Made by a program: the position numbers and the translations under genes. A stretch of 64,000 nucleotides of DNA, from the NCBI GenBank assembly GCA_963829055.1, contig CAWHHI010000006.1:160001-224000 (forward strand). Direction: 5' to 3'. The notes beneath the pieces are model-generated. The model saw only the letters and a list, made by a program, of their open reading frames with translations. It ran no database searches and had not been told where the DNA came from. Shown piece after piece: positions 881-63,777 of this stretch. Origin of the DNA: an uncultured Gemmatimonadaceae bacterium. Lineage in GTDB: Bacteria > Gemmatimonadota > Gemmatimonadetes > Gemmatimonadales > Gemmatimonadaceae. Numbering within the stretch: the first letter of the stretch is position 1; each line of letters begins with the position of its first letter.

Positions 881-1217
881 GGGATCTCTCCAACGTGTGG
901 GGACACCAGTGCGGGCGAATATGGCGGCGCGCCGGTGCGGCCACGCGCCGCCATCCGGAACGCACGAACCAGGAGGAATTCGGCTCACGCCGGAGCCGCG
1001 CAGCGGCCGTGCGCTCGATAGCCCGGCCGCCCTGATTGCCTCGCCATCCAGACGAGGCGAATGGCAACGCCGGATGTTGCCGCGGCGGGCACTGCGCGTC
1101 GGATGGCCGTTAGGTCACCCGACTTACTAGGTTGCACGCGTCAGCCGGGTAGACGGGTGTCGGTACTCGTACTGATCACATCCAGACAGTCCGGAATCGC
1201 CTCCGACTCTATCCCAC

Positions 1218-2621
1218 GTGACGCGCGATCCCCAAGCAACTCGCGATGGCCCGGCCGCGCGGCTTGATAGTCGCGCCGAGAGCGCCCTGCGAACGAATCC
1301 GGAGACGTGGCTCGCGGCCATTGTGGATTCATCCGATGACGCCATTATCGGGAAGACGCTCGATAGCGTGATTCGGAGTTGGAACGGCGGCGCACGCCGC
1401 ATTTTCGGCTACGACGCGGCAGAGATCGTCGGCAAGCCCATCACCCACCTGATCCCGCCAGAGCTCCATCACGAAGAGTCCCAGATCATCGCGCGGCTGC
1501 TCGAGGGGAAGCGCGTCGACCACTACGAGACGGTGCGTGTCCGCAAAGACGGCGCGCGGATCGACGTCTCGCTGAGCGTCTCACCGATCCGCAGCGCAGA
1601 CGGACAGATCATCGGTGCGGCCAAGGTCGTTCGCGACGTCACGGAAGCGAAACGGCTCCAGCGCGCCGAGCGCGAGTTGCTGGAGCAGCTCCAGGAACTC
1701 ACCAGCGAGCTCGAACAACAGATCGAGGAGGCTCAATCGCTCCAGGAAGAGGTCGAACAAGCGAACAATGATCTCGTAGCGTCGCTGGCGGATGCCGATT
1801 CGTCGCGAGAGCACGCGGAGGTCGCACGCCGGGAGGCCAACGACGCGCGCCACTCGGCGGAGGAGGCGAACGCCGCGAAGAGTCAGTTCCTGGCGACGAT
1901 GAGCCACGAGCTTCGGACCCCGCTCAACGCGATCGTGGGGTACGTCGACCTCCTCGACATCGGCGTTCACGGACCGCTCACGCCCGCACAGCGCGACGAC
2001 GTGGCCCGAATTCGGCGCAGCGGGGAGACGCTGCACCGCCTGGTCGAAGACGTGTTGAGCTTCGCCAGACTCGAATCCGGCAGGATCGAGTACCGGTACG
2101 ACGACGTGGTTCTCGATCAGTTTCTTGCGACCCTAGAGGGTTTTATCGCGCCTCGTCTCGCCCAGAAGAACCTCGAATACCACCTCGATTCCCGCCACGC
2201 CGCGGTGACCGTATCCGTGGACCGTGACAAGGTCGAGCAGATCATGCTCAACCTCCTCTCGAACGCCGTGAAGTTCACGGACCGAGGCCGCATTGACGTT
2301 CGCTGCGCGGTCGACGACGGCACCATCAGAATCGACGTCAAGGACACCGGCCGCGGGATTCCGGCGCCGTTGCTGGACTCGATTTTCGAGCCGTTTGTCC
2401 AGGGCGATCGATCGCTCACTCGCACCGCCGAAGGCACAGGCCTTGGCCTCTCCATAAGCCGACAGCTCGCGCGGGGGACGGGCGGCGACATTGTGGTCGA
2501 GAGCGTCCTGGGCGAAGGGTCGACGTTCTCGCTGATGCTCCCACGGAGGCGCGGCGAGAACGTCGGCATGGTGGAGACGAAGTGTGACACGAACGGAGCG
2601 CCTGGCGTACGGGGACGTTAG
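1218..2621 (+). CDS. PAS-domain sensor histidine kinase
   Basis: PAS (SSDDAIIGK..SWNGGA), coiled coil, H-box SHELRTPLN, N-box NLLSNAVKF, DTGRG, GTGLGL. Confidence 0.95.
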   Translation: MTRDPQATRDGPAARLDSRAESALRTNPETWLAAIVDSSDDAIIGKTLDSVIRSWNGGARRIFGYDAAEIVGKPITHLIPPELHHEESQIIARLLEGKRVDHYETVRVRKDGARIDVSLSVSPIRSADGQIIGAAKVVRDVTEAKRLQRAERELLEQLQELTSELEQQIEEAQSLQEEVEQANNDLVASLADADSSREHAEVARREANDARHSAEEANAAKSQFLATMSHELRTPLNAIVGYVDLLDIGVHGPLTPAQRDDVARIRRSGETLHRLVEDVLSFARLESGRIEYRYDDVVLDQFLATLEGFIAPRLAQKNLEYHLDSRHAAVTVSVDRDKVEQIMLNLLSNAVKFTDRGRIDVRCAVDDGTIRIDVKDTGRGIPAPLLDSIFEPFVQGDRSLTRTAEGTGLGLSISRQLARGTGGDIVVESVLGEGSTFSLMLPRRRGENVGMVETKCDTNGAPGVRGR

Positions 2622-2641
2622 GCGGGTTTGCGCCCGGCGCT

Positions 2642-3325
2642 TTAGCCCAGCGATAGCGTGCACAGGTGAGCGATCGCATGGGCAATGACCGCGTACTCGA
2701 ACCCGTACCTCGAGTACAGCCAGCCAAACAGCACGCCGGCGCCCCCATTCGCCAGGACGCTCGCAACCTGGACCGCCGGCGCGAGAGTCGACCCCGTCAG
2801 ATGGAACGCCGCCAGCAGGATCCCTGACGCCAGGACTCCGACCCACACTCGGCGGCGCGCGAGCCACACGACGGCGCTCATGAAGAACAGGTGCAGCACG
2901 ACCTCGAGCGTTATCGCCGCGAACGGTGTCGTTAGGATCCGGACGAGTAGCCCACCGGGCAACCGAGGGGCTCCTGTGAGACGAAGCGCTGCGACACCGG
3001 CAAGGCCAAACACGAGCCCCGCTGCTGCTGCGACCGCGAGCCCACCTGTCGAAAACCGGGCGGCCTCACGCACCTCGAACGCTCGCAGCAGCGGCATTGG
3101 CAGGTTGACGATGTCCGCGATTCGCAGGCCCATCCACGCTGCGAGCCCGGACGCGACCGTCGCGCCGACGACGAACGGCCACAGCGCGGACGTCGCGCGA
3201 CCGTCGGCGGCGCTCAGGAATGGGAGGTAGAGAACCGCGCCAAGCAGACTCGCGGCAGTGAGCGCCAGAAGTCGTCGCCGTACTGGCGGAGTGGCTGCCG
3301 CGGGGCCCGTCGTCGGCGTTGTCAT
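2642..3325 (-). CDS. CPBP/Abi (CAAX-type) intramembrane protease family protein
   Basis: Multi-TM; LEVVLH, AAFH, HAIAH motifs. Confidence 0.65.
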   Translation of the reverse strand: MTTPTTGPAAATPPVRRRLLALTAASLLGAVLYLPFLSAADGRATSALWPFVVGATVASGLAAWMGLRIADIVNLPMPLLRAFEVREAARFSTGGLAVAAAAGLVFGLAGVAALRLTGAPRLPGGLLVRILTTPFAAITLEVVLHLFFMSAVVWLARRRVWVGVLASGILLAAFHLTGSTLAPAVQVASVLANGGAGVLFGWLYSRYGFEYAVIAHAIAHLCTLSLG

Positions 3326-3497
3326 GGGTCGCTTACTTCATAGCGCAGCGGATCGCCGCTCGCCACCGCGTGGGGATCAGACGCGCATCGGCACTGCCGA
3401 AGGGGAGGCATCACACACTGAGGCCGGTGCACGAAGCGACACCCAGCGACCAGCACGACCACGCAGCACCCAGCCGCCGTAGACTATTTTCGACGAT

Positions 3498-4374: not shown

Positions 4375-4380
4375 AAGGGC

Positions 4381-6287: not shown

Positions 6288-6344
6288 AGTTCACCAGCGA
6301 GCAGCCGCCGACACACGTTAGGCACGCAAAAGCCGGAAGGCAGA

Positions 6345-6935
6345 TCAGAACCGAAACGCCAGCGACGGCATGAACATGCCATGCAGCGTGCCGAACGCGT
6401 TCGGCAGGTAGTGGTACTTCGCCTCGAGCGAGAGTCCCGCGTGCCCCGCCGGCGCGAGATCGATGCCGAGCCCACCCAACGCGCCTAACGTTGTCCCGAA
6501 GTTCGTCGACTCCGGTCCCCGCGCGTGGTACACGCCACCGCCGGCCAGGCCGAACAACCGCGGTGCCGCGGCGAGCGGACGGAACTCCGCCGACAGTGTG
6601 CCAGAGTACACCTGATCGGGATGGATCGCGAATCCGCGACACACGCTGCCCGCGACGCACGATGGCTCGGCCACCGCTCCCGATAACATCCCCGCGCTGA
6701 CATCGCCGCGGAACGCCAGTCGCGCCGACCAATGCCACAGGCCGCTGAGCTGCGCGTGAAGCCCGAAGTCGCCGGGCACAGCCACCACGTATCCGGTCGG
6801 GACAGTGGTACCGAGCGCGACGCCAAATCCGAGGCGACTCGGTCGCCCACCATTCGCCTGAGCGGCAACTACGGAACCCGAGGCGTACATAGCGGTTGCA
6901 GCGAGCAGTGCGAGTCTGACGGAGGCAATCGGCAT
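6345..6935 (-). CDS. Outer-membrane beta-barrel (OmpA/OmpW-like) protein
   Basis: Signal peptide, alternating beta strands, LEAKYHY, terminal FRF. Confidence 0.7.
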   Translation of the reverse strand: MPIASVRLALLAATAMYASGSVVAAQANGGRPSRLGFGVALGTTVPTGYVVAVPGDFGLHAQLSGLWHWSARLAFRGDVSAGMLSGAVAEPSCVAGSVCRGFAIHPDQVYSGTLSAEFRPLAAAPRLFGLAGGGVYHARGPESTNFGTTLGALGGLGIDLAPAGHAGLSLEAKYHYLPNAFGTLHGMFMPSLAFRF

Positions 6936-7616: not shown

Positions 7617-8735
7617 ATGCCCGCGATCGCGCTCGCCACGTACGCCGCACTCCCCAACCTCGCCGCCGACGAGCATCCGCTCATCGCGCGCCTGGCCGAG
7701 CGAGACATCCGCGCCGTTCCCGCGGTGTGGGATGACCCCGCGGTCGCCTGGCAACAGTTCGCCGGCGTCATCGTTCGCTCCTGCTGGGATTATCATCTGC
7801 GTCCCGCGGAGTTCTTTCAATGGATCGACCGCGTGACGAGCCTCGGCGTTCCGATCTGGAATTCGCCGGCTACGCTCCGCTGGAATTCGCGCAAGACGTA
7901 CCTGCATGACCTAACGATCGGCGGCGTCCGCACCGTGCCGACGCTCTGGTTGCTCGGCGACAATCCTCGCCGAGCGACGGTGTCGCTGGCGGATGTGATC
8001 GAGGACACGGGGTGGGAGCACGTAGTCGTAAAGCCGGTCGTCTCGTCCTCGGCGCATGAGACGTGGGAGGTGTGGCGCGACGACGCTCGCGAGAACGCCG
8101 CGATGCACGACGCTCGGCTCCGCACGCTCATCGCACGACATGGCGTCATGGTGCAGCCGTTCGTCCCGGAGATCGCGTCGGACGGCGAGTTGTCGCTGCT
8201 GTTCTTCGGCGGCACGTTCAGCCATGCGGTGATCAAGCGCGTGCCGACAGGGACAGGTGAGTTCCGCGTGCAGCGAGAGTACGGCGGAACGCACGAGAGC
8301 GTGACGCCGCCGCCGGCGATCCTTCGTCAGGCGGAGCACGCGCTCCGCTCGGCGCCCGGTGAGTCGCTCTACGCCCGGGTGGATGGCGTCCTCCTCGACC
8401 GAAACCTGGTGGTGACGGAGGTCGAGCTTCTCGAACCGTCGCTATTTCTCGACGTCGTTCCGGAAGCCCCCGAGCGCTTCGCCGCCGCGATCGCGGCCGT
8501 CATTCCGAGCGCGTTGTCATTCCGAGCGGAGCCGCGAAGCGGCGCAGTCGAGGAATCCTCGGCGTCCGGTAGAGAGCCCTCTACCCCACAGGCCGACGAT
8601 TCCTCGACTCCGCGCGCCTTCGGCGCCTCCGCTCGGAATGACAGCCGTTCAAACCTTCGCGCGGCCCTCGGATGTCCCATCGATGCGCTTCCATCAGAAT
8701 CTGATGGGAGACCGCTCGGTCCCATCAAAACCTGA
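7617..8735 (+). CDS. ATP-grasp (RimK/GshB-like) protein with a repeat-derived C-terminal extension
   Basis: RSCWDY, WNSRKTYL, VVKP, VQPF, YARVD, EVELLEPSLF; tail after ~8499 is translated repeat. Confidence 0.85.
   Translation: MPAIALATYAALPNLAADEHPLIARLAERDIRAVPAVWDDPAVAWQQFAGVIVRSCWDYHLRPAEFFQWIDRVTSLGVPIWNSPATLRWNSRKTYLHDLTIGGVRTVPTLWLLGDNPRRATVSLADVIEDTGWEHVVVKPVVSSSAHETWEVWRDDARENAAMHDARLRTLIARHGVMVQPFVPEIASDGELSLLFFGGTFSHAVIKRVPTGTGEFRVQREYGGTHESVTPPPAILRQAEHALRSAPGESLYARVDGVLLDRNLVVTEVELLEPSLFLDVVPEAPERFAAAIAAVIPSALSFRAEPRSGAVEESSASGREPSTPQADDSSTPRAFGASARNDSRSNLRAALGCPIDALPSESDGRPLGPIKT
8499..8642. repeat. REP-like palindrome A1 with duplicated left end
   Basis: GTCATTCCGAGCG at 8499 and 8516; right end CGCTCGGAATGAC. 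Confidence 0.9.
8691..8707. promoter_or_regulatory. Putative PadR operator
   Basis: Perfect palindrome CCATCAGA-A-TCTGATGG ~40 bp upstream of padR; related sites at 8675 and 8720. Confidence 0.55.
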
Positions 8736-9075: not shown

Positions 9076-9088
9076 CGAGGACACGCTC

Positions 9089-11725
9089 ATGCCTATCGAC
9101 GGAATTCGCCGCGCTTTTCGTCGCACCGGACGCGACGCATCGACCGACGTCAGCGACGAGCTCGCGTTCCACTTCGCTCGCCGCGTGGACGACTTGGTCG
9201 CGCGAGGAATGTCGCCCGACGCTGCCCGCGCCGAAGCAGTCCGCGCATTCGGCGATGTCGACCACGTGCGTCGCGAGATGGAGCGCATGACGCGCGCTCG
9301 CCAGGGTCGCGTACGACGCGGCGAATGGCTGGGCGATCTCGCGTACGACGTGCGCTACGCCGCGCGAGGAATGCGACGCACCTGGGCGTTCACACTCGTC
9401 GCGCTGCTCACGCTCGCGCTCGGCATCGGCGCGACGACGGCGACGTTCAGCATCGTGAATGCGGTCCTGCTCCAGCCACTCGCGTTCCCTAACGCGGATC
9501 GCCTGGTTCGTGTGTGGGAACGCACCGACCGCGCGGACCGGGTTCAGCTCGCGACGCCGAACCTGCTCGATCTCAAGGAGCGCTCGCGAACGCTCGCGTA
9601 TCTCGCGGGCTACATGGGCGGAAGCACCGTCGTCCTGGGCGCCGATAAGCCGGTGCGCGCGCAGGCGTACGCAGTCACACGCGACTTCTTCGACGTGCTC
9701 GGCGTACGCCCCGTGCTCGGTCGCCCGTTCGTGCCTGACGAGGCCGTGGAGAATGGCCCGCGCGCGATCATCGTCAGTTACGACTTCTGGCAACGCTTCC
9801 TTGGCGGTACGCGCGACATAGAGCGGCGAGCGCTCGACATTTATGGGACGCGCTATCAGGTCGTGGGCGTCATGCCCGCGGGCTTCGCGTACCCGGCGGG
9901 AGCAGAGATCTGGATGGCGCGCGAGTTCGGCGCCGGCGAATCGCGCACGTCGCACAACTGGCAGGCCATCGGGCGCCTAACGCCGACAGCCACGATCGAG
10001 ACCGCACGGGCCGATCTCGATGGGATCATGCGCTCGCTCGCCGCGCAGTACGGAACGGCCATGAACGGCAGCGGGATCAACATCATGGGTCTCGCCGACT
10101 CGCTCGTCGGGGGCGTACGGCGTCCGCTGACGCTCATCTTCGGCGCGGTGGCGTTCGTGCTGCTCGTGGCGTGCGTCAACCTCGCGAGCGCGAACCTGGC
10201 GCGCGGTGAGTCGAGGCGGCAGGAGATGGCCGTGCGCGCCGCGCTCGGAGCAGGGCGCTCACGGCTCGCGCGCCAGTTGCTGGCCGAGAATGTGTTGATG
10301 GCGATCATTGGTGGCGCGTTCGCGCTGGTCGTCGGTTACGCGTTCACGCGCGCGCTGATCTGGATCGCGCCCGCCAACCTGCCGCGTCTCGCGGAAGTAC
10401 GACTCGATATCCGCGTCGCGGCATTCACGATTGCCCTCGCCACGCTGACGGGCGTGCTCATTGGCGTACTGCCGGCGATGCAGGTCGCGCGGTCTGCGTT
10501 GCGAGATGCGATCTCGGCAGGCGGACGCGCGGGCATCAGCGGCGACGGAGGAGCGAGTCGCAGGATTCTCATCGGTGCCGAGGTGGCGCTCGTGGTCATG
10601 CTGCTCGTTGGCGCGGGCCTGACGCTGCGAAGCTTCCGCACGCTGCTTCAGCAGGATCCCGGGTTCGACCCGACGGGCGTGCTGGCGGTGCAGGTCGATG
10701 TGCCAGCAACCAAGTACGGTGACAGCACACGCGCCGTCGCATTCTATGATCGCTTGTTAGGCGAGGCTCGTGCGTTGCCGTCCGTCACGAGCGTCGGCGT
10801 GATCAACATCGCGCCGCTCGACGCGTGGCACATCAATGGTGGCTTCGAGATCGCGGGTCGTGAGTCCAAGGGCGGCGCGAGCTATCGCGTCATTGGAGGG
10901 GATTACTTCCGCGCGATGTCGATTCCCCTGCGCCGCGGACGCCTGTTCCAGGAGAGCGATCGATCCGGCTCGCCTCACGTCGTCATCGTGAACGAAACGG
11001 CCGCCGCGAAGCTCTGGCCGGGAACGGATCCGATCGGTCAGCGCATCCGCTACACGGGCATGGACAGTCATAGCGACGACTGGATGACCGTCATCGGTGT
11101 GGTTGGCGACGTCCATCAGCTCGGGCTTGCCGTCCCGGCCGAGCCGGAGACGTATGTGCCGTTTGCGCAGCGTCCGGAGCGACTGGTGAACCAGGCGACG
11201 ATCGTCATGCGATCGACGTCCGATCCGGCATTGCTGTCGGCGGCCATCCGCGAGCGCATCCAGGCGGTGGACAGGGAAGTGCCGACGACGATCAAGACGT
11301 TCGATAGCGTGGTGCTCGCGTCCGTTGCTGACAGGCGATTCACGATGGTGGTGCTGAGCGCGTTCGGAGTCTTCGCGCTGTTTCTGGCGGCGGTCGGCAT
11401 CTACGGCGTGCTCGCGTACTCGGTGAATCGCCGCACGCGCGAGATCGGCGTCCGCATGGCGCTCGGCGCCGCACGAGGTCGCGTTCTTCGCATGATCCTG
11501 AGAGATGCGATGCGCGCGGTCGTCCCGGGCATAGGGGTCGGGATCGCCGGCGCCCTGATGCTGACGCGATTGATGTCGGGCCTGCTCTACGGGATTGCGC
11601 CGACGGATCCTCTGACGTTCGTGGCCGTGATCGCGGTGCTCGTGGTGGTGACGCTTGCGGCGAGCCTGGTCCCTGCGCGGCGCGCGACCAGGGTCGATCC
11701 CATGGAAGCGATTCGTGCTGCGTGA
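9089..11725 (+). CDS. ADOP-type duplicated MacB/FtsX ABC permease 1
   Basis: Prefix DELAFH..GMSPDAARAEAVRAFG; LALGIGA, LLVACVN, REIGVRMALGA, PARRATRVDP. Confidence 0.95.
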   Translation: MPIDGIRRAFRRTGRDASTDVSDELAFHFARRVDDLVARGMSPDAARAEAVRAFGDVDHVRREMERMTRARQGRVRRGEWLGDLAYDVRYAARGMRRTWAFTLVALLTLALGIGATTATFSIVNAVLLQPLAFPNADRLVRVWERTDRADRVQLATPNLLDLKERSRTLAYLAGYMGGSTVVLGADKPVRAQAYAVTRDFFDVLGVRPVLGRPFVPDEAVENGPRAIIVSYDFWQRFLGGTRDIERRALDIYGTRYQVVGVMPAGFAYPAGAEIWMAREFGAGESRTSHNWQAIGRLTPTATIETARADLDGIMRSLAAQYGTAMNGSGINIMGLADSLVGGVRRPLTLIFGAVAFVLLVACVNLASANLARGESRRQEMAVRAALGAGRSRLARQLLAENVLMAIIGGAFALVVGYAFTRALIWIAPANLPRLAEVRLDIRVAAFTIALATLTGVLIGVLPAMQVARSALRDAISAGGRAGISGDGGASRRILIGAEVALVVMLLVGAGLTLRSFRTLLQQDPGFDPTGVLAVQVDVPATKYGDSTRAVAFYDRLLGEARALPSVTSVGVINIAPLDAWHINGGFEIAGRESKGGASYRVIGGDYFRAMSIPLRRGRLFQESDRSGSPHVVIVNETAAAKLWPGTDPIGQRIRYTGMDSHSDDWMTVIGVVGDVHQLGLAVPAEPETYVPFAQRPERLVNQATIVMRSTSDPALLSAAIRERIQAVDREVPTTIKTFDSVVLASVADRRFTMVVLSAFGVFALFLAAVGIYGVLAYSVNRRTREIGVRMALGAARGRVLRMILRDAMRAVVPGIGVGIAGALMLTRLMSGLLYGIAPTDPLTFVAVIAVLVVVTLAASLVPARRATRVDPMEAIRAA

Positions 11726-12217: not shown

Positions 12218-13427
12218 ATGAATCCGACTCCCGCCGATACGCCGCCGATCTCGACGAACGTTCCCGGCGAGACCTCGCCTGCGTCCGCCGACCTCGGCGA
12301 GCTCGCCCTCGTCATGGGTGGCGGTGGCGCGCGCGGCGCGTATCAGGTCGGGCTGCTGCGCCACCTCGCGCGACGATTCCCCACGCTGCGCCTGCCCATT
12401 CTCACCGGCGTCTCGGCCGGCGCGCTCAATGTCGCGCACCTCGCGCAACATCAAGGGACATTCCTCGAGGCAGTGACGTCGCTCGAGCGGCTCTGGCGTT
12501 CGCTCAGCCCCGAGCAGGTGTACCGCGTCGACCCGCCGGCGCTCCTCGGCAACCTGGTTCGATGGGGCGTGCGCCTCGTCTCCGGAGGCACCGTCTCCGA
12601 AACGCAGACGCGAGGCCTCGTCGACACGACGCCGCTACGCGCGTTCCTGGAGCGTGCGCTCGCACCACAGGAGGGCGTCCTCGACGGCATCGACAAGAAC
12701 CTCGCTCGTGGAACACTGCGCGCCGTCGCGCTGAGCACGACCGACTACGGCACCGGGCAGTCGTTCGTCTGGATGCAGGGGCGCAACATCGAGGAATGGG
12801 AGCGCCCGAAGCGGCGCAGCTGTCTCCACGCGCCTAACGGTGGACCACGTCATGGGCTCGGCCGCGCTGCCGTTCCTGTTTCCGGCCGTGCGCATCGAGA
12901 ACTCGTGGCATGGCGACGGCGGCATCCGCCAGACGGCACCGCTTTCTCCGGCGTTGCACCTCGGCGCGCATAAGATCCTCGCGATCTCGACGCGCTACGA
13001 TCGCACGCAGGCGGAGGCGAACCGACCGCTCGTTCGCGGGTACCCGCCGCCGGCGCAGGTGCTGAGCGTCCTGTACAACGCCATCTTCCTCGATCTGATC
13101 GATCAGGACGTGCTGCGCCTCGAGAGGATGAACTACGTGCTGCGCAAACTGCCGCCCGACGAGCGCTCGGGGATGCGCGTGGTCAACATTCTCGTCCTGC
13201 GTCCATCACGGGATCTGGGCAAGCTGTCGCGCGAGTACGAGCCGCTGCTCCCAGGCTTCTTCCGCTTCCTGACGCGCGGACTCGGCACGCGTGAGACCGC
13301 GAGCCCGGACATTCTGAGTCTGGTGATGTTTCAGGAGAACTATCTCGGACGCCTGATCGAGCTCGGCGAGGAAGACGCCGAGGCGCGCGCGGATGAAATC
13401 GGAGAATTCGTGAGCACTCACTATTGA
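12218..13427 (+). CDS. Patatin-like phospholipase (frameshift ~12825)
   Basis: GGGARG, GVSAG, DGG motifs across two frames. Confidence 0.9.
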
Positions 13428-13697: not shown

Positions 13698-15138
13698 CAC
13701 GGCTTCGGCCTCGCCCGATACTGCTCGTACAGCTTCGTGTGGCGGTCCGTGAGCGGAACCGCCTGGCCCCGAATGAACAGGTACTTCACGTTGCTGCGCA
13801 CATCGAGCGGGTTGCCCGTCGTCACCATGACGTTCGCGACCTTGCCCGCCTCGAGGCTGCCGTACTTGTCGGCCACGCCGAAGATCTGCGCCGGGATTGA
13901 TCGTCAGCGCCTTGATCGCCTCGTCCATGTCGAGCCCATACGCCGTCGACAGCGCCGCGTTGTACGGCAGGCTGCGCACGTCCGCCGCACTCGATGTCTG
14001 GAAGGCGATCTTCACGCCCGCCTTCGCGAGCACGCCCGGCTGCGCGTACAATGCGTCGTACGGATCCTCGGGACCTGGCGCCTGCGTCGTCGGGCCGACG
14101 ATCACGGGAATGCCGCGCGCGGCAAGCGTGTCGGCGACGCGCCACGCGTCGCGCGGTCCACGCAGGATGACCTTCAGCTTGAACGAGTCCGCGAGCGCGA
14201 GCACGCCGCGAATCTGATCGATCGAGCTCACGTCGAAGATCACCGGCATCTCGCCGCGGATCGCCGGGACGCAGCGACTCCATCGCCTGGTTGACGCGCG
14301 GAGCGTTAGGCACCGTGCCACCCGCTGCAACCTTCGCCTTCACCTCGGCGTACGACCGCGCGTCAGCGAACAGAGTCACGCATCGCACGCACCTGACGAC
14401 TCGCGGTCTCCGATGCGTCGCCCTGCGCGCGCCCGCCGAAGCCGCCGCCCCGCCCGCCGCCGCCGCTGGACGACGGATACGACATCACCTGCGCCGCGCG
14501 CGGCTTGATCGCCATCTCGTCTGGCGTCCAGCCCCACAGATCCATCAGCGCGGCACTGCCCGACATGAGCGCGCCGGTCGCCGACGTGATGACGGTGGTC
14601 ACGCCGTTCACGCGCGACACCGGAATCAGCTCGGAGCTGGCGTTGACGGCCGTGAGCGCGACGTCCTGCGGGTTGAAGTCACCGATCTCGCGCGTGTCCG
14701 TCGAGCCGGGAACGGATCCGATCTCGGTGAGGCCGAGCTCCGTGCCGCTGTCGATCATGCCGGGGTAGACGAACAGTCCCGGTGGCGTCGATGATGGTGG
14801 CGTCCGGCCGGCACCTGCACGTTCGCCCCGACGGACTGGATCGCCCGTTGGCGATGACGACGGTCCCGTTAGGTATCTGCGCCCCGACCACAGGCACGAC
14901 GGTGCCGCCGCGGATCACGTACGTCGGTCCCTGTGCCGCGAGCGCGATGCGCCATGTCATCCCGAGCGAATCGTCATTCCGAGCGCGCGCATCGAGGAAC
15001 GACGTGGAGTGAGGCCTCTCGAGACGGTCGCGACCTGACCGAGCGACGCGGCGCTCCGCTCGGAATGCACGACCCGCGCGGCTCTGCTCGGAATGACAGC
15101 TCGATTCCCGATTCCCGATTCCCGATTCCCGATCTCAT
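13697..15138 (-). CDS. Amidohydrolase-family protein 3 (lacks HxH; several frameshifts)
   Basis: [35 protein letters not shown], ends [13 protein letters not shown] 15138 overlaps upstream stop. Confidence 0.8.
14955..15133. repeat. Degenerate REP-like A1 plus (GATTCCC)n run in the 5' end of amidohydrolase 3
   Basis: GTCATCCCGAGCG/GTCATTCCGAGCG...GCTCGGAATGAC followed by about 4 GATTCCC units. Confidence 0.8.
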
Positions 15139-18522: not shown

Positions 18523-19366
18523 CTACCTGGCGGCGACTGTCGCCGCGCTCTGCTTCGAGAGGAACGTGTACAAGCCGTTCACCTCTTCATCCGTGAGATA
18601 GGCGAAGCGGCCTCGCGCAGTCCGAGCCATGAGGTCGAGCTTCCGTCCGTCCCGCGGAATGCCTTCACGCATGAGCTTCGCGAACTCCTCGGCGGAGTAG
18701 GCGGCGACGACCGAGAGCGCGGGCGTGTCGGGGCCCCCCTCGAGCTTCATCCCGTGGCACTCGGTGCAGGAGGATTTCGCGGTGTACTCCCCCAAGGGCC
18801 ACCGGCTCCGGGCCCTTCCGGGGCCGAGGCGCGTCATGCGCGATGTTCAGTGGCTCGAGCTTGTACTGACCCGTGACGAGCCCCACCCGCGCCAGGATGC
18901 GCATTGCGGTTGCCGGAAGCGAATCCGGCTGAGCTGGCAGCGTACGTAAGTAGGCGATGAGGGAACCCAGGTCCTCATCGTCGAGGTTGTAGAACATTGA
19001 CGATGGCATGACGGCGACGCCTCGGCCATTGGGGCGCACACCATGTCGCAGCAGGCGAGCCAGGTCGGAGTCGGAGTAGGCACGAATGGCTTTCGGAACG
19101 TTAGGCGCGACGAGGCGCGCGATCATCCGGTCGTCGAAGAACACCTCACCCCTCATGCCCTCGCCGTGGCAGCCCGCACAGCCGCGGGTCGCGTAGACGT
19201 GCTGGCCGCGCGCGAGCGCCGCCATGCCGACGGGAATGGTGATCGGGGTGGCCGGGATGTCGAACGTCTGCCGCAGCCGATACTCGCTGACGCCGTAGAT
19301 CACTATCAATGCGATCGCCACAATCGAGCCGAGGCCGATCGCGAGCCACTTCAGAACCCGTTTCAC
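18523..19366 (-). CDS. Membrane-anchored dihaem cytochrome c (frameshift ~18790)
   Basis: N-terminal TM, CAGCH and CTECH haem motifs; AGGAGG RBS. Confidence 0.85.
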
Positions 19367-42127: not shown

Positions 42128-42130
42128 CGA

Positions 42131-51981: not shown

Positions 51982-52829
51982 TAGCCTTTGATCCAGTCTA
52001 CCGCCTGCCGCGCAATCTCTGGCGGCACCGCGTGCGGGCCGTCGAATTCCTTGTACTGCACGTCGTAACGCGCCTGCTGCAGCTGCGGCACGATGCGGCG
52101 ACTGCACTGGTCGATTGGCAGGATCTCGTCGCGCGTCCCGTGCGAGATGAATACGTGCGGACGCGCGTGCGGGTCGATCGGAAGGACGAAGCCTGGCGAG
52201 AACGCGATCACGCGCTGGAACAGGTCTCCGTTCGTGAGGCCGACGCCGAGCGCGTAGGTCGCGCCGTCGGAGAATCCTTCGATCGTTAGGCGGGCCGGGT
52301 CGATCGCCACCCGCCCGAACACCATTCCGAGCGCGCGGTCGATGAACGCGATGTCCGGGCCGTACTGGCTGCGGATCGCGTCCCACGTCGTGCCGCGGGA
52401 TTCGGGCGCGAGCAGTACGAGGCCGGCGTCGTCGGCCAGCTCGCGGAACGGGCGAAGCGCGCCGCGCGCGGATCCTGTCGCGCCGTGCAGCATGAGAACG
52501 AGCGGCGCCGGCGTCGTGGGCACGTAGCCCGCGGGCACGTAGAGCAGCCCGTCGCGCGCGCCTCCGAGCGAGAGCGGTTGCTCGCCAGGCGTGATCGAGC
52601 CGGTCGGGGTTCCTGGCCGCGCGGTGAGGCGACCACCGGTTGGCAGCGCGAGCGCATCCTTCACTCCACCAACATTACAGGCGGCGGCGAGCGCTCCAGC
52701 CGCGCCCGCTCCAGCGGCGGAGAGAAACGACCGCCGCGAGATGGGTAAACCGCGCGAGCTGCGAGACCAACCGTTGAACGGTGTCACGGGAGCCGTCGAG
52801 GCGAATGTGAGAGCGTCCGATGCGCTCAC
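51981..52829 (-). CDS. Phospholipase/carboxylesterase (alpha/beta hydrolase) with Tat-like signal; start uncertain
   Basis: SRRSFL, LHGATG, GFSDG, HGTRD, FDGPH. Confidence 0.88.
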   Translation of the reverse strand: MSASDALTFASTAPVTPFNGWSRSSRGLPISRRSFLSAAGAGAAGALAAACNVGGVKDALALPTGGRLTARPGTPTGSITPGEQPLSLGGARDGLLYVPAGYVPTTPAPLVLMLHGATGSARGALRPFRELADDAGLVLLAPESRGTTWDAIRSQYGPDIAFIDRALGMVFGRVAIDPARLTIEGFSDGATYALGVGLTNGDLFQRVIAFSPGFVLPIDPHARPHVFISHGTRDEILPIDQCSRRIVPQLQQARYDVQYKEFDGPHAVPPEIARQAVDWIKG

Positions 52830-53959: not shown

Positions 53960-54012
53960 GCCGAACCCTGCGCTCTACCGACCGGTCACATACGTCGCGC
54001 GCATTCGCGACG

Positions 54013-54511
54013 TTAGGCAGTGCCCCACGCGCCGAGCTGCTGGCGAACCGCCACGAGCTGACCGAGGTGGTAGGCGTTATGATCGGCGACGAGCAGGATC
54101 TCGCGGATGTACGTCTGGCCGTCCCCGTGCGGGATCTTCGCGAACAGATCGATCGATTGATCCTCCGCGAGCGCCTCGAGTGCGGCGCGGTCTTCGCGGA
54201 ACGCGCTGATGGCGTCATCCCACGCGGAAGGTCGACGGCGGCTCCGCGGACGACGGCCAGTAGTCGTCGGGCCACTTCATCTCCTCGTACTTCGGGTTGA
54301 CGCAGAAGTCGAGGATGTCGTGCTGCGTGATTCGCATGTGCTCGAGGAGCTCCCACGCAGAGTGCGGGAACTTCTCTACGCGGACGCCGCGCAGCTTGGG
54401 CGCGAGGCCTTCGACGGACTTCTCGAAACCGACGTGGGCGTCCTGCCAACCGAGGATGCGGCGGAGCTGCGCGCGGAGGGGTGCATCGGATGCGGCGGAG
54501 GCGGTTGTCAT
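54013..54511 (-). CDS. DinB-family protein (frameshift ~54230)
   Basis: HSAWELLEH, WPDDYWP, REILLVADHNAYHLGQ. Confidence 0.88.
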
Positions 54512-54837
54512 GTGTCGATGGGCTGGGGGCCGGATGCGGTGAAGGCCACCATCACGCCCTAACGTGTTGGTGGCCTTCTCAGACCGAACGGCGCGGTGGT
54601 CGTCGGTCAGCCATTACAGCGAGCTTACCAGCGAGCCTTAGCGGCTCCCGGCGATCCGCGCCGTACTAGGGTCAGTAGACAATGGATCACCTCCTCGATT
54701 CGCGGGTGAACTTGCGGGCGACGAAAATAATGTAATGCGTGTTACGCCGATGTGGGCAAGGGGTTGCCGCTGAGATGTCGTGCGACGAATGGGCAGCCGA
54801 GCGCGGCAATTTGTCGCTACGAGCGTCAGTGATTGAC

Positions 54838-56147: not shown

Positions 56148-56618
56148 CCGGCGCCGCCATCACCACTGCCGTTCGAGATTCGCGCCTCGCCCATGCAGGG
56201 GCTCGGGGCGTTCGCCACCGACGCCATTCCGGCCGGCGTTAGGCTCATCGAGTACGCCGGGCAGCGGCTCACGCCCGCGGAGGCCGAGGCGCGGTATCCC
56301 GATGTGCCTGGCGAGCGGCATCACACGTATTTGTTCGCCATCGATGACGACGACGGCAACGAGGTCGTCGTCGACGCCGCCGTCGACGGGAACGAGGCGC
56401 GGTTCATCAACCACTCGTGCGCGCCGAACTGCGACGCCGTCGTCGAGCACGGGCGCATCTGGATCGAGACGATTCGCGACATCGCGCCGGGCGAGGAGCT
56501 GGCGTACGACTACGCGTACATCCTCGAAGAGCGCCACACGCCAGCGGCCAAGCGTCGGTTCCCGTGTCACTGCGGCGCGGCGACGTGTCGCGGGACCATC
56601 CTGGCGAAGAAACGTTAG
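56142..56618 (+). CDS. SET-domain protein-lysine methyltransferase with post-SET
   Basis: GLGAFA, ARFINHSCAPNC, GEELAYDY, CHCGAATCRG. Confidence 0.95.
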   Translation: MTPAPPSPLPFEIRASPMQGLGAFATDAIPAGVRLIEYAGQRLTPAEAEARYPDVPGERHHTYLFAIDDDDGNEVVVDAAVDGNEARFINHSCAPNCDAVVEHGRIWIETIRDIAPGEELAYDYAYILEERHTPAAKRRFPCHCGAATCRGTILAKKR

Positions 56619-56644
56619 GCCGCGCTTCCGAGTGGGGCGAGCCA

Positions 56645-56764: not shown

Positions 56765-56814
56765 CAGGTCCCCGATCACCACGAGCCTAACGTGGACGAT
56801 CGGGCCTCGGGGCG

Positions 56815-57661: not shown

Positions 57662-58327
57662 ATGGCTGGAACACCGAGAATGCTGACCCGCCTGATTGCC
57701 GCGCTGCATCGCTGGGCAGAATCCGGCTGGGCCGGCGCCGCGACGGCGTCCTGGGAGGTCCTTCAGAGCTCCGTGGTGCCGGGCCCGAGTGGCGCGGTGT
57801 TCGCGCCGCTGGTCGTGGCCGATCCCGGGCGCGGCCCACGGCTGGCCGCGTGGGGCGCGGCCGGCGCGATCGCCGGCGGGTGCATCGCGTTCCTCATCGG
57901 CGCCCGGGCCTTCGACAGCCTCGGCCTCCCAGTCCTGTCGGCGTTAGGCGTCAGCCACGAGACGCTGGCGTCGAGCGCGACAATGTTCGCACGGCACGGA
58001 TGGATGCTCGTCTTCGTGAGCACGGTCTCGCCGCTGTCCACGAAGCTCACGTGCATAGCCGCCGGCGCGTTCGGGCTGCCGTTCGTCGAGTTCGTTCCGG
58101 CGCTCATCGTCGGGCGCATCATTCGATTCGCGGCACTGACGGTTCTGCTGCGCTTCGCTGGCGAGCGGCTCTGGCTCGCCTCGCTCGTCGCCGGACTGAC
58201 CCTCGCCGATGTAGTCGAACTGACGTCATCTGGGGTCAGACTCGAGTCTGACCCCAATCGTGAACGGCAGCTGGTTGCTGCGCAGTCGCTGGGTGACATC
58301 AGGGCCCTGTCGCTGGCGTTCGGGTGA
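57662..58327 (+). CDS. DedA/YqaA (VTT-domain) membrane protein
   Basis: QSSVVPGP, SPLSTKL..IAAG, GRIIRF; hydrophobic. Confidence 0.75.
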   Translation: MAGTPRMLTRLIAALHRWAESGWAGAATASWEVLQSSVVPGPSGAVFAPLVVADPGRGPRLAAWGAAGAIAGGCIAFLIGARAFDSLGLPVLSALGVSHETLASSATMFARHGWMLVFVSTVSPLSTKLTCIAAGAFGLPFVEFVPALIVGRIIRFAALTVLLRFAGERLWLASLVAGLTLADVVELTSSGVRLESDPNRERQLVAAQSLGDIRALSLAFG

Positions 58328-58498: not shown

Positions 58499-60310
58499 AT
58501 GCCTGACTCAAAGCCGACCGTTTCCGATCAACTGCTCGATCGCCTCGAAGCGTGGGGCGTGCGCCGACTGTTCGGCTTTCCCGGCGACGGCATCAACGGC
58601 GTCATGGGCGCGCTCAATCGCGCCGACGGTCGATTCGAGTTCGTGCAGGTCGCTCACGAAGAGCTCGCCGGTCTCATGGCGACGGCGCACGCGAAGTTCA
58701 CCGGTGAGGTCGGCGTCTGCGTGTGCACGAGCGGGCCCGGCGCGATTCACATGCTGAACGGACTCTACGATGCGAAGCTCGACCACCAGCCCGTCGTCGC
58801 GCTCGTCGGCCAGCAAGCGTTCGCCGGGGTCGGCGGCAGCACTCAGCAGGAGACGAACCTGCGCGCGCTGCTGCAGGATGTCGCGAGCAGCTACCTCGAA
58901 ACCGTCGTCAAGCCAGAGCAACTCGCGCACGTCGTCGACCGCGCGTTTCGCGCCGCCCTCGGCGGACGCACCGTCGCGGCGATCATCCTGCCGCACGACG
59001 TTCAACTCGAGGACGCCGTCGTCGACCCGCCGCACAAGCACGGCCGCCAGCACTCAGCTCCTGGATTCACGCCGTCCCGTCCGGTGCCGCCTGACGAGTT
59101 GCTACGTCAGGCGGCGGACGTACTGAACGCGGGACGCAAGGTCGCGATCCTCGTCGGCGCGGGCGCGTTGCACGCGAGCGAGCAGGTGATGCAGGTCGCG
59201 GAGCGGCTCGGCGCCGGTGTCGCGAAGGCGTTGTTAGGCAAGGCCGTGTTGCCTGACGATTTGCCGTACGTCACCGGCGCGGTCGGCTGGCTCGGCACGT
59301 CGGCGAGCAATCGCATGATGCGCGAATGCGATACGCTGCTCATGATCGGGACCAACTTCCCGTACACGGAGTTCCTCCCGAAGTCGGGTCAGGCGCGCGG
59401 AGTCCAGATCGACGTGGAGCCGAGGAATCTCGCGCTGCGCTATCCGATCGAGGTGCCCATCATCGGCGACGCGGCGGACACCCTAACGAGACTGCTGCCG
59501 CTGCTGGACGAGACGCGCCAGGAGAGTTGGCGCGGCGACATCGAGCAATGGGCGCGCGACGCATGGGCGACGGCCGAGCGGCACGCGCATGCGCAGGCCA
59601 ATCCGGTCAACCCGCAGCTCGTGGTGTGGGAGCTCGACCAGCGTCTGCCTGACAACTCGATCCTGACGGCGGACTCGGGAACGGCCGCGGTATGGCTCGC
59701 GCGATGCATTCGCATCCGTGAAGGCATGAGCGCGTCGCTGTCAGGCGGACTGGCGACGATGGGCTGTGCGGTCCCGTACGCCCTGGCGGCGAAGCTCGCA
59801 CATCCGGACCGCCCTGTGTTCGGCCTCGTGGGCGACGGCGCGATGCAGATGATCGGGCTGAACGCGCTGATCGATGTCGCGAAGCAATGGCGCGCGGCGA
59901 ACAATGGCGGGCGCCCATGGCGCGATCAGCGGTTGGTGCTACTGGTGCTCAACAACCGGGATCTCAACTTCGTGACGTGGGAGCAGCGTGCGATGGACGG
60001 CGATCCGCGTTATGTGGCGTCGCAGGCGCTGCCGGATCTGCCTTACGCGGACTTCGCCCGGATGCTCGGCCTCGACGGCGTGCGCGTGGAACGCCCGGAG
60101 GATATCGGCGCGGCGTGGGACCGCGCGCTGGCGGCGGATCGTCCGTTCGTCATCGACGCGGTGGTGGACGCCGCGGTCCCGACGCTGCCGCCGGAGCTGG
60201 AGAAAGAGCAAGAAGACAAACTCACCCAGGCTCTGTCGAACGGAGATCCCGACGCCGATGCTGTGTTGGAGCAGTTACAGCTCCAAGAGGTCGTACAGAG
60301 CCAAGAATAA
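58499..60310 (+). CDS. Thiamine-pyrophosphate-requiring protein (pyruvate oxidase/dehydrogenase-like)
   Basis: FGFPGDGIN, HEE, TSGPG, GDGAMQM..LNN. Confidence 0.93.
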   Translation: MPDSKPTVSDQLLDRLEAWGVRRLFGFPGDGINGVMGALNRADGRFEFVQVAHEELAGLMATAHAKFTGEVGVCVCTSGPGAIHMLNGLYDAKLDHQPVVALVGQQAFAGVGGSTQQETNLRALLQDVASSYLETVVKPEQLAHVVDRAFRAALGGRTVAAIILPHDVQLEDAVVDPPHKHGRQHSAPGFTPSRPVPPDELLRQAADVLNAGRKVAILVGAGALHASEQVMQVAERLGAGVAKALLGKAVLPDDLPYVTGAVGWLGTSASNRMMRECDTLLMIGTNFPYTEFLPKSGQARGVQIDVEPRNLALRYPIEVPIIGDAADTLTRLLPLLDETRQESWRGDIEQWARDAWATAERHAHAQANPVNPQLVVWELDQRLPDNSILTADSGTAAVWLARCIRIREGMSASLSGGLATMGCAVPYALAAKLAHPDRPVFGLVGDGAMQMIGLNALIDVAKQWRAANNGGRPWRDQRLVLLVLNNRDLNFVTWEQRAMDGDPRYVASQALPDLPYADFARMLGLDGVRVERPEDIGAAWDRALAADRPFVIDAVVDAAVPTLPPELEKEQEDKLTQALSNGDPDADAVLEQLQLQEVVQSQE

Positions 60311-62134: not shown

Positions 62135-62380
62135 GGGAATCCTTGCGTGCGGTCGGAAGCACGAGCGGCGCGCGTGGCGACGCTCAGACTACGGATGTCG
62201 ATATGCGTGACTCCCGCAGACGGCCAGGAGGCGGCGGGCTGGGATGCTCGACGGGTGCTAGCTGAAGCTAACGCCCAGACTTCGCTCTGTGCGAGGACTG
62301 TGCGACAGGCGGTGGTATGCCCGCTGACCGCACGACCGGACGGCATTGTGCTGCATGACATCGCTTTGTTTACGGGAGCT

Positions 62381-62412
62381 GGGAACGGGGAACCGGGGAC
62401 CGGGAACAGGGG
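62381..62412. repeat. (GGGAACN)n heptamer run
   Basis: GGGAACG-GGGAACC-GGGGACC-GGGAACA. Confidence 0.7.
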
Positions 62413-62416
62413 CTGC

Positions 62417-63777
62417 ATGCCGCGAGCTCTCATACGTCTCGTTGGGATCCTTGCGCGCCATCGCCAGCGGCGCCTGCGGACGCCCGCTCGGCAACGAGCC
62501 GCACCCAGACGGCGCGCGATCCCGTCGCGAGCCCCGCAACGACCCCGCTCGCGCTCGTCGGAGTGCGGGTCGTCCCGATGACGTCGAACGTCGTGCTGGT
62601 CGATCAGACGATCATCGTGCGCGACGGCGTCGTCACCGCGCTCGGGCCGTCCGCAGCCACACCGGTTCCAGCCGGCGCGACCGTCGTTACAGCGGCGGCG
62701 GCCGCTACGTCATGCCGGCGCTCATCGACATGCACGTGCACCTGTCGAGCGCCGATCTCGACGCGTACGTCAACGCGGGCATCGGCACCGTGCGCAACAT
62801 GTGGGGCTTCGCGTCGATCGCGACGATGCAGCGCGACATTGAAGCCGGCGCGCGCGTGGGCCCGACGATCATCAGTGCGAGCCCGGGGCTCGACGGTCCG
62901 CCGGCTCAGTGGCCCGGCACGCTGCTCATCACCGATGCGCGTGAGGCGCGCGCGCTCGTGCGCGCACAGGCCGACGCCGGCTGGCCATACCTCAAGGTCT
63001 ACACGCGCCTCACGCCGGAAGTGTTCGACTCGGTGATGGTCGCTGCGCGCTCATTTGGCATCACGCCGATCGGTCACGTGCCATTCGAGGTAGACGTGTT
63101 GCACGCGATGGACGCGGGCATGAAGTCGATCGAGCACTTCACGGGCTACGACCGCGTCGGTGAGTCGCACGCGCCGCGCGGGGACGTGGGGGTGGGCGGA
63201 CGCGGACCCGTCGCGCTTCGCGTCGTTGGTCGAGGCGACGGTGCGAGCGGGTGTGTGGAACTGCCCGACGCTCGCGATCTTCGACGAGCTCGCGAAGCAG
63301 CATACGGCGGCTGAGCGAGCGGCGATCGTTCGAAATCGCGGTCTGTTCGTGCGCGAGCTCTCACGTGCGGGCGCTCGTATCCTCCTCGGCACCGACGCCG
63401 GAATCGATGTCGTAGCGCCGGGCGAGTCGGTGCACGACGAGCTACGCGAGATGGTCGCGGCGGGCCTAACGCCGTTCGACGCCTTGCGCGCGGGTACGAC
63501 GAGTGCCGCGGAGTTCCTCGGCCGACCTGATCTGGGCCGAGTGGCAGTGGGCGCGCGTGCGGACCTGTTGCTGCTGGAAGGGAATCCGCTGGCTGATGTC
63601 GCGAACGCGCATCGCATGGACGGCGTGGTCCTGCGAGGCGCCTGGCGCCCGGCGCATCCCGAGGAGCGCATGAGCTGTCATCCGGGAGCGCAGCGACGAG
63701 GGACCTTCGGTGAAGTACTCGTGGCCCGACCGGCTACGATGCCATCACACAAGGTCCCTCGCTGCCGCTCGGGATGA
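62417..63777 (+). CDS. Amidohydrolase-family protein (frameshifts; stop inside repeat)
   Basis: MPALIDMHVH, LKVY, GH, SIEH, LGTDAG, GRVAVGARADL. Confidence 0.87.

Follow-up and report, generated by a model that had tools for sequence, protein, structure and literature searches.

A hyper-abundant asymmetric octamer in Gemmatimonadaceae genomes that resembles the DNA uptake sequences of Proteobacteria

To our knowledge, DNA exchange guided by sequence-specific self-tags is established for only two families of Proteobacteria, the Neisseriaceae with their DNA uptake sequence (DUS) and the Pasteurellaceae with their uptake signal sequence (USS). Chi words are short, non-palindromic, over-represented and species-specific and, together with the FtsK-orienting polar sequences (KOPS) and architecture-imparting sequences (AIMS), belong to the short asymmetric over-represented words that are read by DNA translocases. 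The highly iterated palindrome 1 (HIP1, GCGATCGC) of cyanobacteria is a hyper-abundant octamer that occurs in genes regardless of frame, is a palindrome and is linked to methyltransferases. For uptake sequences, a molecular-drive model has been discussed (PMC2397512). Here we analyse the word CGTTAGG (CCTAACG on the other strand) in a stretch of 64,000 nucleotides (the window, G000:C6:160001-224000) from an uncultured Gemmatimonadaceae bacterium, whose assembly, G000, comprises 7,784,024 bases in 20 contigs at 66.7% G+C and is 86% complete. An earlier annotation made from the letters of the window (the sequence-only reading) had pointed out the word and compared it with uptake sequences, HIP1 and Chi; that observation is confirmed, and its interpretation is partly supported. 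We tentatively favour, short of calling it probable, the view that the full word, CGTTAGGC, may be a lineage-specific self-tag similar to a DNA uptake sequence and spread by biased transmission.

Abundance of the word and its footprint in genes

The window contains 59 exact copies of the heptamer, 35 on the forward strand and 24 on the reverse strand, which is the number that had been counted by eye. In 100 dinucleotide-preserving shuffles of the window the mean was 2.74 copies (sd 1.71, maximum 7) and none of the 100 reached 59, so that the enrichment is about 20-fold and the roughly seven copies expected earlier from base composition were an overestimate. Five TGTTAGG/CCTAACA variants are present (10755, 32068, 49791, 59232 and 60838), again as estimated, and the remark that most TTAG/CTAA tetramers fall within the word holds for 59 of the 78 in the window; genome-wide, 72% of TTAG lies inside it. 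Forty-five of the 59 heptamers extend to the octamer CGTTAGGC, which is the full word.

Across G000 there are 3237 + 3154 = 6391 heptamers, about one per 1.2 kb, and 5004 octamers, 49 times the 102 expected under an order-2 Markov model; the over-representation lists at k = 6 to 9 are topped by CGTTAGGC and its sub-words. On its 3' side the heptamer is followed by C in 5004 copies, by T in 827, by G in 428 and by A in 132, and the base 5' of the word is rarely C (13% of dispersed copies). The relative entropy of the flanks is at most 0.17 bit at every position except +8 and, once the preceding base is also set aside, at most 0.1 bit. Since the flanks are nearly free of information, the word is a free-standing octamer and not a repeat element; a dispersed repeat such as a repetitive extragenic palindrome (REP) or a miniature inverted-repeat transposable element (MITE) is disfavoured, because sequence beyond the core is not conserved. 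A systematic base-calling artefact, which had been named as a way in which the observation could fail, is likewise disfavoured: the word reaches the same abundance in seven further assemblies from the genus, and contigs of 20 public runs (14 studies of soil, rhizosphere and sediment) contain the stretch 44001-54000 of the window.

The genes of G000 were called with our own crude caller (6198 calls over 69% of the genome), so that the class "no gene called" is an upper bound on spacer DNA. All four stop-free frames are used, with 1444 copies as nCG-TTA-GGn, 532 as nnC-GTT-AGG, 1120 as CCT-AAC-Gnn and 710 as nnC-CTA-ACG; 2138 copies lie outside gene calls and 447 at gene edges, and those within genes are divided between sense (1976) and antisense (1830). 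When codons were shuffled synonymously within genes, 335 ± 17 copies were obtained (10 shuffles) versus 3820 observed in called genes, an 11-fold excess. The codons involved are rare: CCT accounts for 8.4% of all codons for Pro, and TTA for 1.6% of those for Leu. Of the TTA codons of G000, 54% sit inside the word. Where the protein sequence gives the opportunity, the word is often written: in 59.7% of 1885 P-N-[VADEG] tripeptides and 28.7% of 5034 [STPA]-L-G opportunities. The proteome itself is shifted, since PN[VADEG] occurs 1885 times versus 1080 for the reversed tripeptide (1.75-fold) and [STPA]LG 5215 times versus 4152 (1.26-fold), and no such shift was seen for VR and LT in the G000 proteome. 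Known uptake sequences show the same kind of tripeptide enrichment, as described by Findlay and Redfield (PMC2817400). The word also supplies 205 of the 1846 TAG stops and 249 of the 764 TAA stops of called genes. Enrichment therefore acts at the DNA level and regardless of frame, as the sequence-only reading had proposed; it overrides codon bias and has altered protein sequences. The four codon contexts that it had named (those at 21965, 22275, 9488 and 9976) agree with the gene calls. Its statement that four genes end within the word fared less evenly: the stops at 2619 and 56616 stand, the TAA at 42125 ends an open reading frame (ORF) that is not among the called genes, and, for the fourth, no ORF of at least 150 amino acids ends at 54014-54016. 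Two further stops within the word came to light, a TAA in gene 20014-21129(-) and a TAG in gene 33379-34314(+).

Spacing, orientation and turnover of copies

The word shows no replichore skew. In 50-kb bins of positive GC skew, 1259 copies on one strand compare with 1172 on the other, and in negative bins 1750 with 1771, giving a co-orientation with GC skew of 51.8%; of 6371 pairs of adjacent copies, 51.7% have both members on one strand. Copies avoid one another at short range. Gaps below 50, 100 and 200 bp make up 1.0%, 2.3% and 6.4% of the total versus 4.1%, 8.0% and 15.3% for an exponential distribution of equal mean, and pairs of copies occur at 0.3 of the expected density when 25-100 bp apart, rising to about 0.55 at 100-200 bp and 0.8 at 200-300 bp and reaching about 1 beyond 400 bp. 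Same-strand and opposite-strand pairs show this repulsion below about 300 bp to the same extent. Synonymous opportunities follow suit: within 50 bp of another copy 1.8% of them are used for the word, a share that is 7% at 100-200 bp, 17-21% at 300-1200 bp and 0.5% beyond 4 kb. The process is thus indifferent to orientation and saturates once a few hundred bases hold one copy. In Neisseria, the spacing of DUS matches the length of conversion tracts (PMC2397512). A role for inverted pairs as terminators was rejected, as close pairs show no inverted excess, and clusters of copies, considered as a possible mark of a regulator's own promoter, contain at most four copies with nothing conspicuous about them in G000.

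These observations bear on the suggestion of a Chi-like signal, in which a helicase-nuclease of the AddAB/AdnAB type would recognise the word on single-stranded DNA and be switched by it from degradation to recombination, so that self DNA is marked. Two adjacent PDDEXK_1 nuclease-domain genes are found on contig C15 of G000, as in AddAB/AdnAB pairs, and the density per orientation, about one per 2.4 kb, is within the range of Chi. The polarity expected of a Chi-like or KOPS-like word was not seen, however, and copies in opposite orientation repel each other as strongly as copies in the same orientation, which is unexpected for a signal acting in one direction; such a signal, which does not predict indifference to orientation, is for this reason disfavoured. 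We also know of no Chi word whose enrichment approaches 49-fold at the expense of such rare codons. RecC was not found in the 86%-complete G000, which by itself excludes nothing. Taken together, we consider a Chi-like role improbable.

Comparison of orthologous DNA allows the history of individual copies to be followed. The gene for an AcrB-type resistance-nodulation-division (RND) pump in the window (47819-50959), whose product is 88-89% identical to those of the nearest records, which are metagenome-assembled genomes (MAGs), and 73% identical to that of Roseisolibacter sp., was aligned with its orthologues in two genomes of the survey, G001 and G005 (loci L001 and L002 appear to be those same two genomes). 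Of eight columns that hold the motif, one is common to all three genes, two are private to the window, four are found only in G001 and G005, and one only in G005. The alternative allele is CCSAGCG in four of the seven non-universal columns, a change between TTA and CTC/CTG Leu in which two letters differ together. Over 105.7 kb aligned between G001 and G000 (79.4% identity), 39 sites are shared, 30 are present only in G000 and 26 only in G001, so that 57-60% of each genome's sites are shared versus a background 7-mer identity of 26%, an approximately twofold excess that answers the earlier call for a check on conservation. Non-shared sites differ from their orthologue by one, two, three or four letters in 16, 18, 17 and 5 cases, versus 47%, 32%, 14% and 5% in the background; 40 of 56 private sites are therefore at least two letters away, compared with 53% in the background. 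Young DUS copies show the same excess divergence (Treangen et al., PMC2397512). Losses are made good nearby. When sites across alignment gaps are taken in (32 only in G001, 31 only in G000), a private site of the other genome lies within 500 bp of 32 of the 63 private sites, versus 18.1 ± 4.1 at random (P = 0.0005, 2000 simulations), and within 300 bp of 20, versus 11.7 expected. Sites are thus conserved above background, yet turn over with local replacement. As for variable places in reads, a subset of 40 out of 513 included none inside a copy, where 0.2 were expected.

A second explanation, in line with what has been proposed for HIP1, is a mutation or repair bias tied to DNA modification, in which a methyltransferase would mark the word and short-patch repair would convert near-cognates; the sequence-only reading had named a methyltransferase site among its candidates. 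The one-letter variants of CGTTAGGC are of interest in this respect, because most are depleted to 0.2-0.8 of expectation and a few are enriched: TGTTAGGC 14.8-fold, CGTTAGGT 17-fold, CGTTAGGG 9-fold and CGTTATGC 7.7-fold. The last of these is a secondary word of G000 (583 copies versus 75.5 expected) that departs from CGTTAGGC at position 6 only. On the other hand, C5 methyltransferase (PF00145) was found in 0 of 8 motif-rich genomes, a search that did not extend to Vsr or to the N6 and N4 methyltransferase families; PF00145 occurs in four of the 41 relatives surveyed, all of which have few copies apart from a genome of intermediate count (G020), in which the match is fragmentary. Repair of T:G to C:G would be unable to create the TTA core, and the excess of private sites at least two letters from their orthologue also counts against this explanation. 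Neither repulsion between copies nor upkeep of a local density is predicted by a bias that acts on each site autonomously, and such a bias is accordingly disfavoured. We regard this explanation as decidedly improbable.

Distribution among relatives and the link to integrons

Two surveys were made, one of 41 relatives and one of 301 genomes of the phylum. They include four unpublished genomes (G013, G085, G124 and G203), all of which are motif-poor and on none of which any conclusion depends. Within the genus of G000 all seven genomes hold 2501-5112 octamers, and G014, of another genus, has 6360 in 5.1 Mb. Five genomes (G010, G019, G020, G036 and G040) have 345-605, and most others of the 41 relatives have 5-60, below the control of the reversed word. 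Elsewhere in the phylum, there are about 4000 octamers in each of G240 and G297 and 4469 in G304; G293, which is labelled as the same genus as G240 and G297, has 66, and G007 has 38. Nine further genomes have 450-1100, three of them from one genus in a second family, and intermediate counts of 350-1100 span about a dozen genera. Outside the order, no genome of the 102 surveyed has more than 70 octamers. Among named genomes, there are 30 copies in Roseisolibacter sp., 12 in one Gemmatimonadales chromosome and 17 in one Gemmatimonas MAG, and among MAGs from outside the Gemmatimonadota, 3 in Rubricoccaceae and 5 in Vicinamibacteria. CGTTAGGC is the top 8-mer in sampled DNA of G014, G010 and G040, and is not among the top words in the 41 kb sampled from G036. 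PolA sequences of 27 genomes gave, in a quick analysis, a tree with 11 of its 24 inner branches unresolved, in which the rich genomes do not form one supported clade; densities are continuous from 3 to 1247 per Mb. The word is therefore hyper-abundant only in scattered genera of one order; it is held at a local density rather than at exact positions, and is on to differing degrees in scattered lineages.

In the complete genome of G304 the word occurs at 0.62-0.86 per kb in samples of all four replicons. One contig of this genome (G304:C4, L193) is 20,952 bases long and repeats after 14,997 bases, indicating a circle of about 15 kb; its genes include those for a tyrosine integrase and a DUF5906 protein.

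The three longest motif-free stretches of G000 all lie at contig ends (C6:5440-55038, C6:591808-623330 and C11:1-44055). They carry housekeeping genes, some of them split, and FtsK, FolD, chorismate synthase and DAHP synthase encoded there have second copies elsewhere in G000 at 47-59% identity. Such divergent second copies imply that the motif-free ends are probably foreign DNA, from another organism, joined in assembly. The word is thus a cheap marker of native versus foreign or mis-binned DNA, and here it has flagged three chimeric contig ends.

The claim that the word had not been described needs to be qualified. Our literature search found no description of it as a dispersed genomic word in bacteria, but GTTAGGC fits the integron core GTTRRRY, and GCCTAAC the inverse core RYYYAAC, as given in PMC3053210, and in motif-poor relatives the octamer marks attC sites. 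The two cores, the R' and R'' boxes of attC, face each other across 50-150 nt in a hairpin, and attC sites form arrays next to intI. In G027 nearly all copies lie in same-strand arrays. The first 20,000 bases of its contig C95 (L084) contain 19 attC units of 72-136 nt that start with GCCTAAC and end with (C)CGTTAGGC; folding of three of these units gave long hairpins (about -31 to -34 kcal/mol) that show the unpaired triplet typical of attC. The arrays on G027:C80 and G025:C26 adjoin integron-integrase genes, and these two and that on G027:C95 are chromosomal integron cassette arrays. G000 has its own integron integrase gene at C20:208041-208958 (265.7 bits, just over the cut-off; 10008-10985 on the reverse strand of locus L097, C20:198001-216000), with a clear attC-like hairpin closed by the word at L097 7102-7190 and attC-like ends at 7717 and 9189, all located 3' of the integrase gene and oriented as it is.

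It could therefore be asked whether the integron system spreads or keeps the word as its attC/attI core, with the integrase or a relative acting on the dispersed copies. Besides the fit to the core consensus and the hairpins just described, integrases above cut-off were found in 24 of the 41 relatives. Their presence fails to track the word, however: the profile gave only Xer-like scores in the motif-rich G002 and G004 and only fragments in G014, and many motif-poor genomes have an integrase gene of full length. Only two of the 16 GTTRRRY words are enriched (GTTAGGC and GTTAGGT); inverse-core/core pairs within 150 bp in G000 are no commoner than the opposite arrangement (54 versus 53); a C precedes the word in 20 of 24 attC sites, compared with the 13% of dispersed copies given above; and copies arise through substitution in conserved genes rather than by insertion. 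The dispersed copies are not attC sites, and we judge such a role of the integron system very improbable. A different connection may be imagined, in which uptake or some other transfer machinery reads the octamer that closes attC, so that cassettes, being flanked by the word, would be imported preferentially and the genome-wide word would be a by-product. This seems to us an outside chance, but if true it would represent a direct coupling of transformation and integrons through a cassette-capture device that is so far undescribed. The identity of the word with an integron core in any case raises a link between transformation and cassette capture that can be tested.

The copies of the window are collected in Table 1. 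Other features of the window include five large MacB_PCD/FtsX "duplicated permease" genes within 32 kb (8783-11725, 21655-23868, 29556-32309, 34922-36478 and 38675-40684) and a MITE-like palindromic repeat of about 120 bp at 56646-56764, with arms GTCATTCCGAGCG... and ...CGCTCGGAATGAC. In G000 this repeat has 81 matches over both strands, which correspond to about 40 loci, and it also has many matches in G003 and G004. It explains other over-represented 8- to 10-mers of G000 (TCGGAATGA, AGTCGAGGAA and TCCGCTCGGA), and the CGTTAGG word is absent from it.

Table 1. Copies of CGTTAGG (+) and CCTAACG (-) in the window, from exact matching and gene calls; "no gene called" refers to our own crude gene caller.
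Position	Strand	Context
1108..1114	+	no gene called
2616..2622	+	TAG (2619-2621) is stop of PAS histidine kinase gene 1218-2621
2930..2936	+	antisense in gene 2642-3325(-), nnC-CTA-ACG
6316..6322	+	no gene called
6484..6490	-	no gene called
7910..7916	-	gene 7617-8735(+), nnC-CTA-ACG
9488..9494	-	MacB/FtsX permease gene 8783-11725(+), CCT-AAC-Gnn
9976..9982	-	MacB/FtsX permease gene 8783-11725(+), nnC-CTA-ACG
12833..12839	-	no gene called
14304..14310	+	no gene called
14867..14873	+	ORF 14782-15012(+), nCG-TTA-GGn
15261..15267	+	no gene called
15968..15974	-	at edge of called ORF 15372-15968(-)
16504..16510	-	no gene called
17338..17344	+	gene 16724-17680(-), CCT-AAC-Gnn
19099..19105	+	gene 18665-19366(-), CCT-AAC-Gnn
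19570..19576	-	no gene called
20012..20018	+	TAA stop (20014-20016, - strand) of M20 peptidase gene 20014-21129(-)
21965..21971	+	MacB/FtsX gene 21655-23868(+), nCG-TTA-GGn
22275..22281	+	MacB/FtsX gene 21655-23868(+), nnC-GTT-AGG
22987..22993	-	MacB/FtsX gene 21655-23868(+), CCT-AAC-Gnn
23659..23665	-	MacB/FtsX gene 21655-23868(+), CCT-AAC-Gnn
25886..25892	-	gene 25757-26455(+), CCT-AAC-Gnn
26699..26705	+	no gene called
27502..27508	+	gene 27066-27752(+), nCG-TTA-GGn
28817..28823	-	gene 28145-28978(+), CCT-AAC-Gnn
29459..29465	+	ORF 29191-29559(+), nCG-TTA-GGn
29956..29962	+	MacB/FtsX gene 29556-32309(+), nCG-TTA-GGn
30027..30033	-	MacB/FtsX gene 29556-32309(+), CCT-AAC-Gnn
30997..31003	+	MacB/FtsX gene 29556-32309(+), nCG-TTA-GGn
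31826..31832	+	MacB/FtsX gene 29556-32309(+), nnC-GTT-AGG
33748..33754	-	gene 33379-34314(+), CCT-AAC-Gnn
34309..34315	+	TAG (34312-34314) is stop of gene 33379-34314(+)
35973..35979	+	no gene called
38070..38076	+	no gene called
38325..38331	+	ORF 38234-38533(+), nCG-TTA-GGn
38612..38618	+	no gene called
39165..39171	+	MacB/FtsX gene 38675-40684(+), nCG-TTA-GGn
40419..40425	+	MacB/FtsX gene 38675-40684(+), nCG-TTA-GGn
41022..41028	-	gene 40838-41875(-), nCG-TTA-GGn
42123..42129	-	TAA (42125-42127) ends listed ORF 41387-42127(+), not among called genes
42995..43001	+	no gene called
43919..43925	-	gene 43339-44148(-), nCG-TTA-GGn
44189..44195	+	no gene called
44639..44645	+	no gene called
44982..44988	+	no gene called
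46292..46298	+	DUF2911 gene 45968-47236(-), nnC-CTA-ACG
47982..47988	-	AcrB-type RND pump gene 47819-50959(-), nCG-TTA-GGn; private to G000 among three orthologues
48018..48024	-	RND pump gene 47819-50959(-), nCG-TTA-GGn; common to G001 and G005 orthologues
48483..48489	-	RND pump gene 47819-50959(-), nCG-TTA-GGn; private; orthologues CCSAGCG, i.e. CTC/CTG Leu
52284..52290	+	gene 51981-52829(-), nnC-CTA-ACG
54011..54017	+	no gene called; claimed stop-codon role not confirmed
54558..54564	-	no gene called
56237..56243	+	ORF 56142-56618(+), nnC-GTT-AGG
56613..56619	+	TAG (56616-56618) is stop of ORF 56142-56618(+)
56786..56792	-	no gene called; just past unrelated 120-bp palindromic repeat
57942..57948	+	gene 57662-58327(+), nCG-TTA-GGn
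59482..59488	-	TPP enzyme gene 58499-60310(+), nnC-CTA-ACG
63465..63471	-	gene 63160-63777(+), nnC-CTA-ACG

A possible self-tag and its comparison with known systems

The properties observed are those expected of a tag that raises a fragment's chance of transmission, and the analogy with uptake sequences drawn by the sequence-only reading fits every statistical feature examined. If the word is such a tag, a protein of these bacteria would read the double-stranded octamer in either orientation, and segments with at least one copy would be passed on preferentially. The likeliest route would be preferential uptake of conspecific DNA by a type IV pilus and ComEC, followed by homologous recombination, and new copies would become fixed at any place that the protein sequence allows, a process that ends once every few hundred bases contain one. 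We infer the reader protein, its place in the uptake machinery and the transformability of these bacteria. The uptake toolkit of G000 comprises ComEC, ComFB, an HHH_3 protein, DprA, a secretin and seven prepilin-type proteins.

Several points weigh against a role in uptake. These uptake genes are near-universal and say little about competence. The ComP_DUS domain (PF16732), which stands for the ComP-type minor pilin that serves as receptor in Neisseria, was found in 0 of 8 motif-rich genomes, although a receptor without homology to it is conceivable, and two candidate readers, a PilA-like pilin and a 340-aa pilin-like protein, are present in rich and poor genomes alike; because these are not restricted to rich genomes, they do not identify a reader. 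In the literature searched, natural transformation is undocumented for this phylum and no article pairs Gemmatimonad* with "uptake sequence". The integrative element of about 15 kb in G304 bears the word at 0.86 per kb, the chromosomal density, whereas mobile elements of Neisseria are reportedly without DUS. No alternative dispersed word was found in the motif-poor G007 (260 kb sampled), G012 (66 kb), G016 (40 kb) and G293 (170 kb), and there is thus no sign in these four relatives of "dialects" of the Neisseriaceae type. Finally, all of the statistics would follow equally from direct selection for a spaced binding site.

The candidates for a dialect that did appear in poor relatives proved to be local repeats, namely the TCGTCTATCGTGGATC family in G007 and heptamer tandem arrays in G293. 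The latter (L166-L177) are (CTGCTTT)n and (CTGAACC)n arrays, arranged as inverted pairs about 50-130 bp apart at many spacer loci.

The last of the points against uptake leads to the alternative that an abundant DNA-binding protein inside the cell uses the word as its site, for example in nucleoid organisation, in the loading of a spreading or looping protein, or as a self mark in defence. The word would then be selected directly at about one copy per few hundred bases with no role in DNA transfer. Repulsion below 300 bp regardless of orientation, local replacement and conservation above background are all in keeping with such a site, as is the equal density on all four replicons of G304, including the small integrative element, and stabilising selection on local density would fit these features as well as drive does. 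Selection at each site would, however, have to outweigh the costs in codon usage and amino acids at more than 6000 sites, and the existence of close relatives without the word (66 copies in G293, 38 in G007) is odd for a core function of the chromosome. We know of no sequence-specific nucleoid protein with thousands of exact 8-bp sites. This alternative is unlikely in our view, but it deserves serious consideration, and the Chi-like, modification-linked and integrase-linked explanations share most of the probability that it and the uptake-type self-tag leave.

If the word is an uptake-type self-tag, the origin, reading and decay of such tags would become testable outside pathogens. It would be a case from an abundant and barely cultured soil phylum, with a stronger override of codon usage and a measurable length of interference, and its close relatives with thousands of copies versus almost none would provide natural contrasts.

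Among known systems, the integron core site has the same letters, and attC hairpins closed by the octamer are found in relatives and once in G000; more than 99% of the copies differ from attC in being alone in ordinary genes, unpaired, with another 5' neighbour and no correlation with integrase. HIP1 is likewise a hyper-abundant octamer irrespective of frame, but words of its type are expected to be palindromes with a cognate cytosine methyltransferase, whereas this word is asymmetric and no C5 methyltransferase was found in the motif-rich genomes. Chi, KOPS and AIMS are skewed with replication; this word lacks their strong co-orientation, and its copies interfere in any orientation. The closest likeness is to DUS and USS. 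Relative to these, the word differs in belonging to another phylum, in its length of only 8 bp with hardly any flanking signal, in its use of very rare codons and a far higher synonymous saturation (up to 60%), and in having no inverted-pair terminators, no ComP_DUS homologue as receptor and no dialects in four poor relatives, and it is known here from sequence alone. It shares with them (PMC2397512, PMC2817400) the form of a short non-palindromic word present about once per kb on both strands, in several frames of genes and in spacers, with raised tripeptides, foreign DNA that lacks the word, restriction to a lineage, an uptake machinery that is encoded in G000, a constrained spacing seen here as repulsion between pairs, and sites that are conserved and yet turn over.

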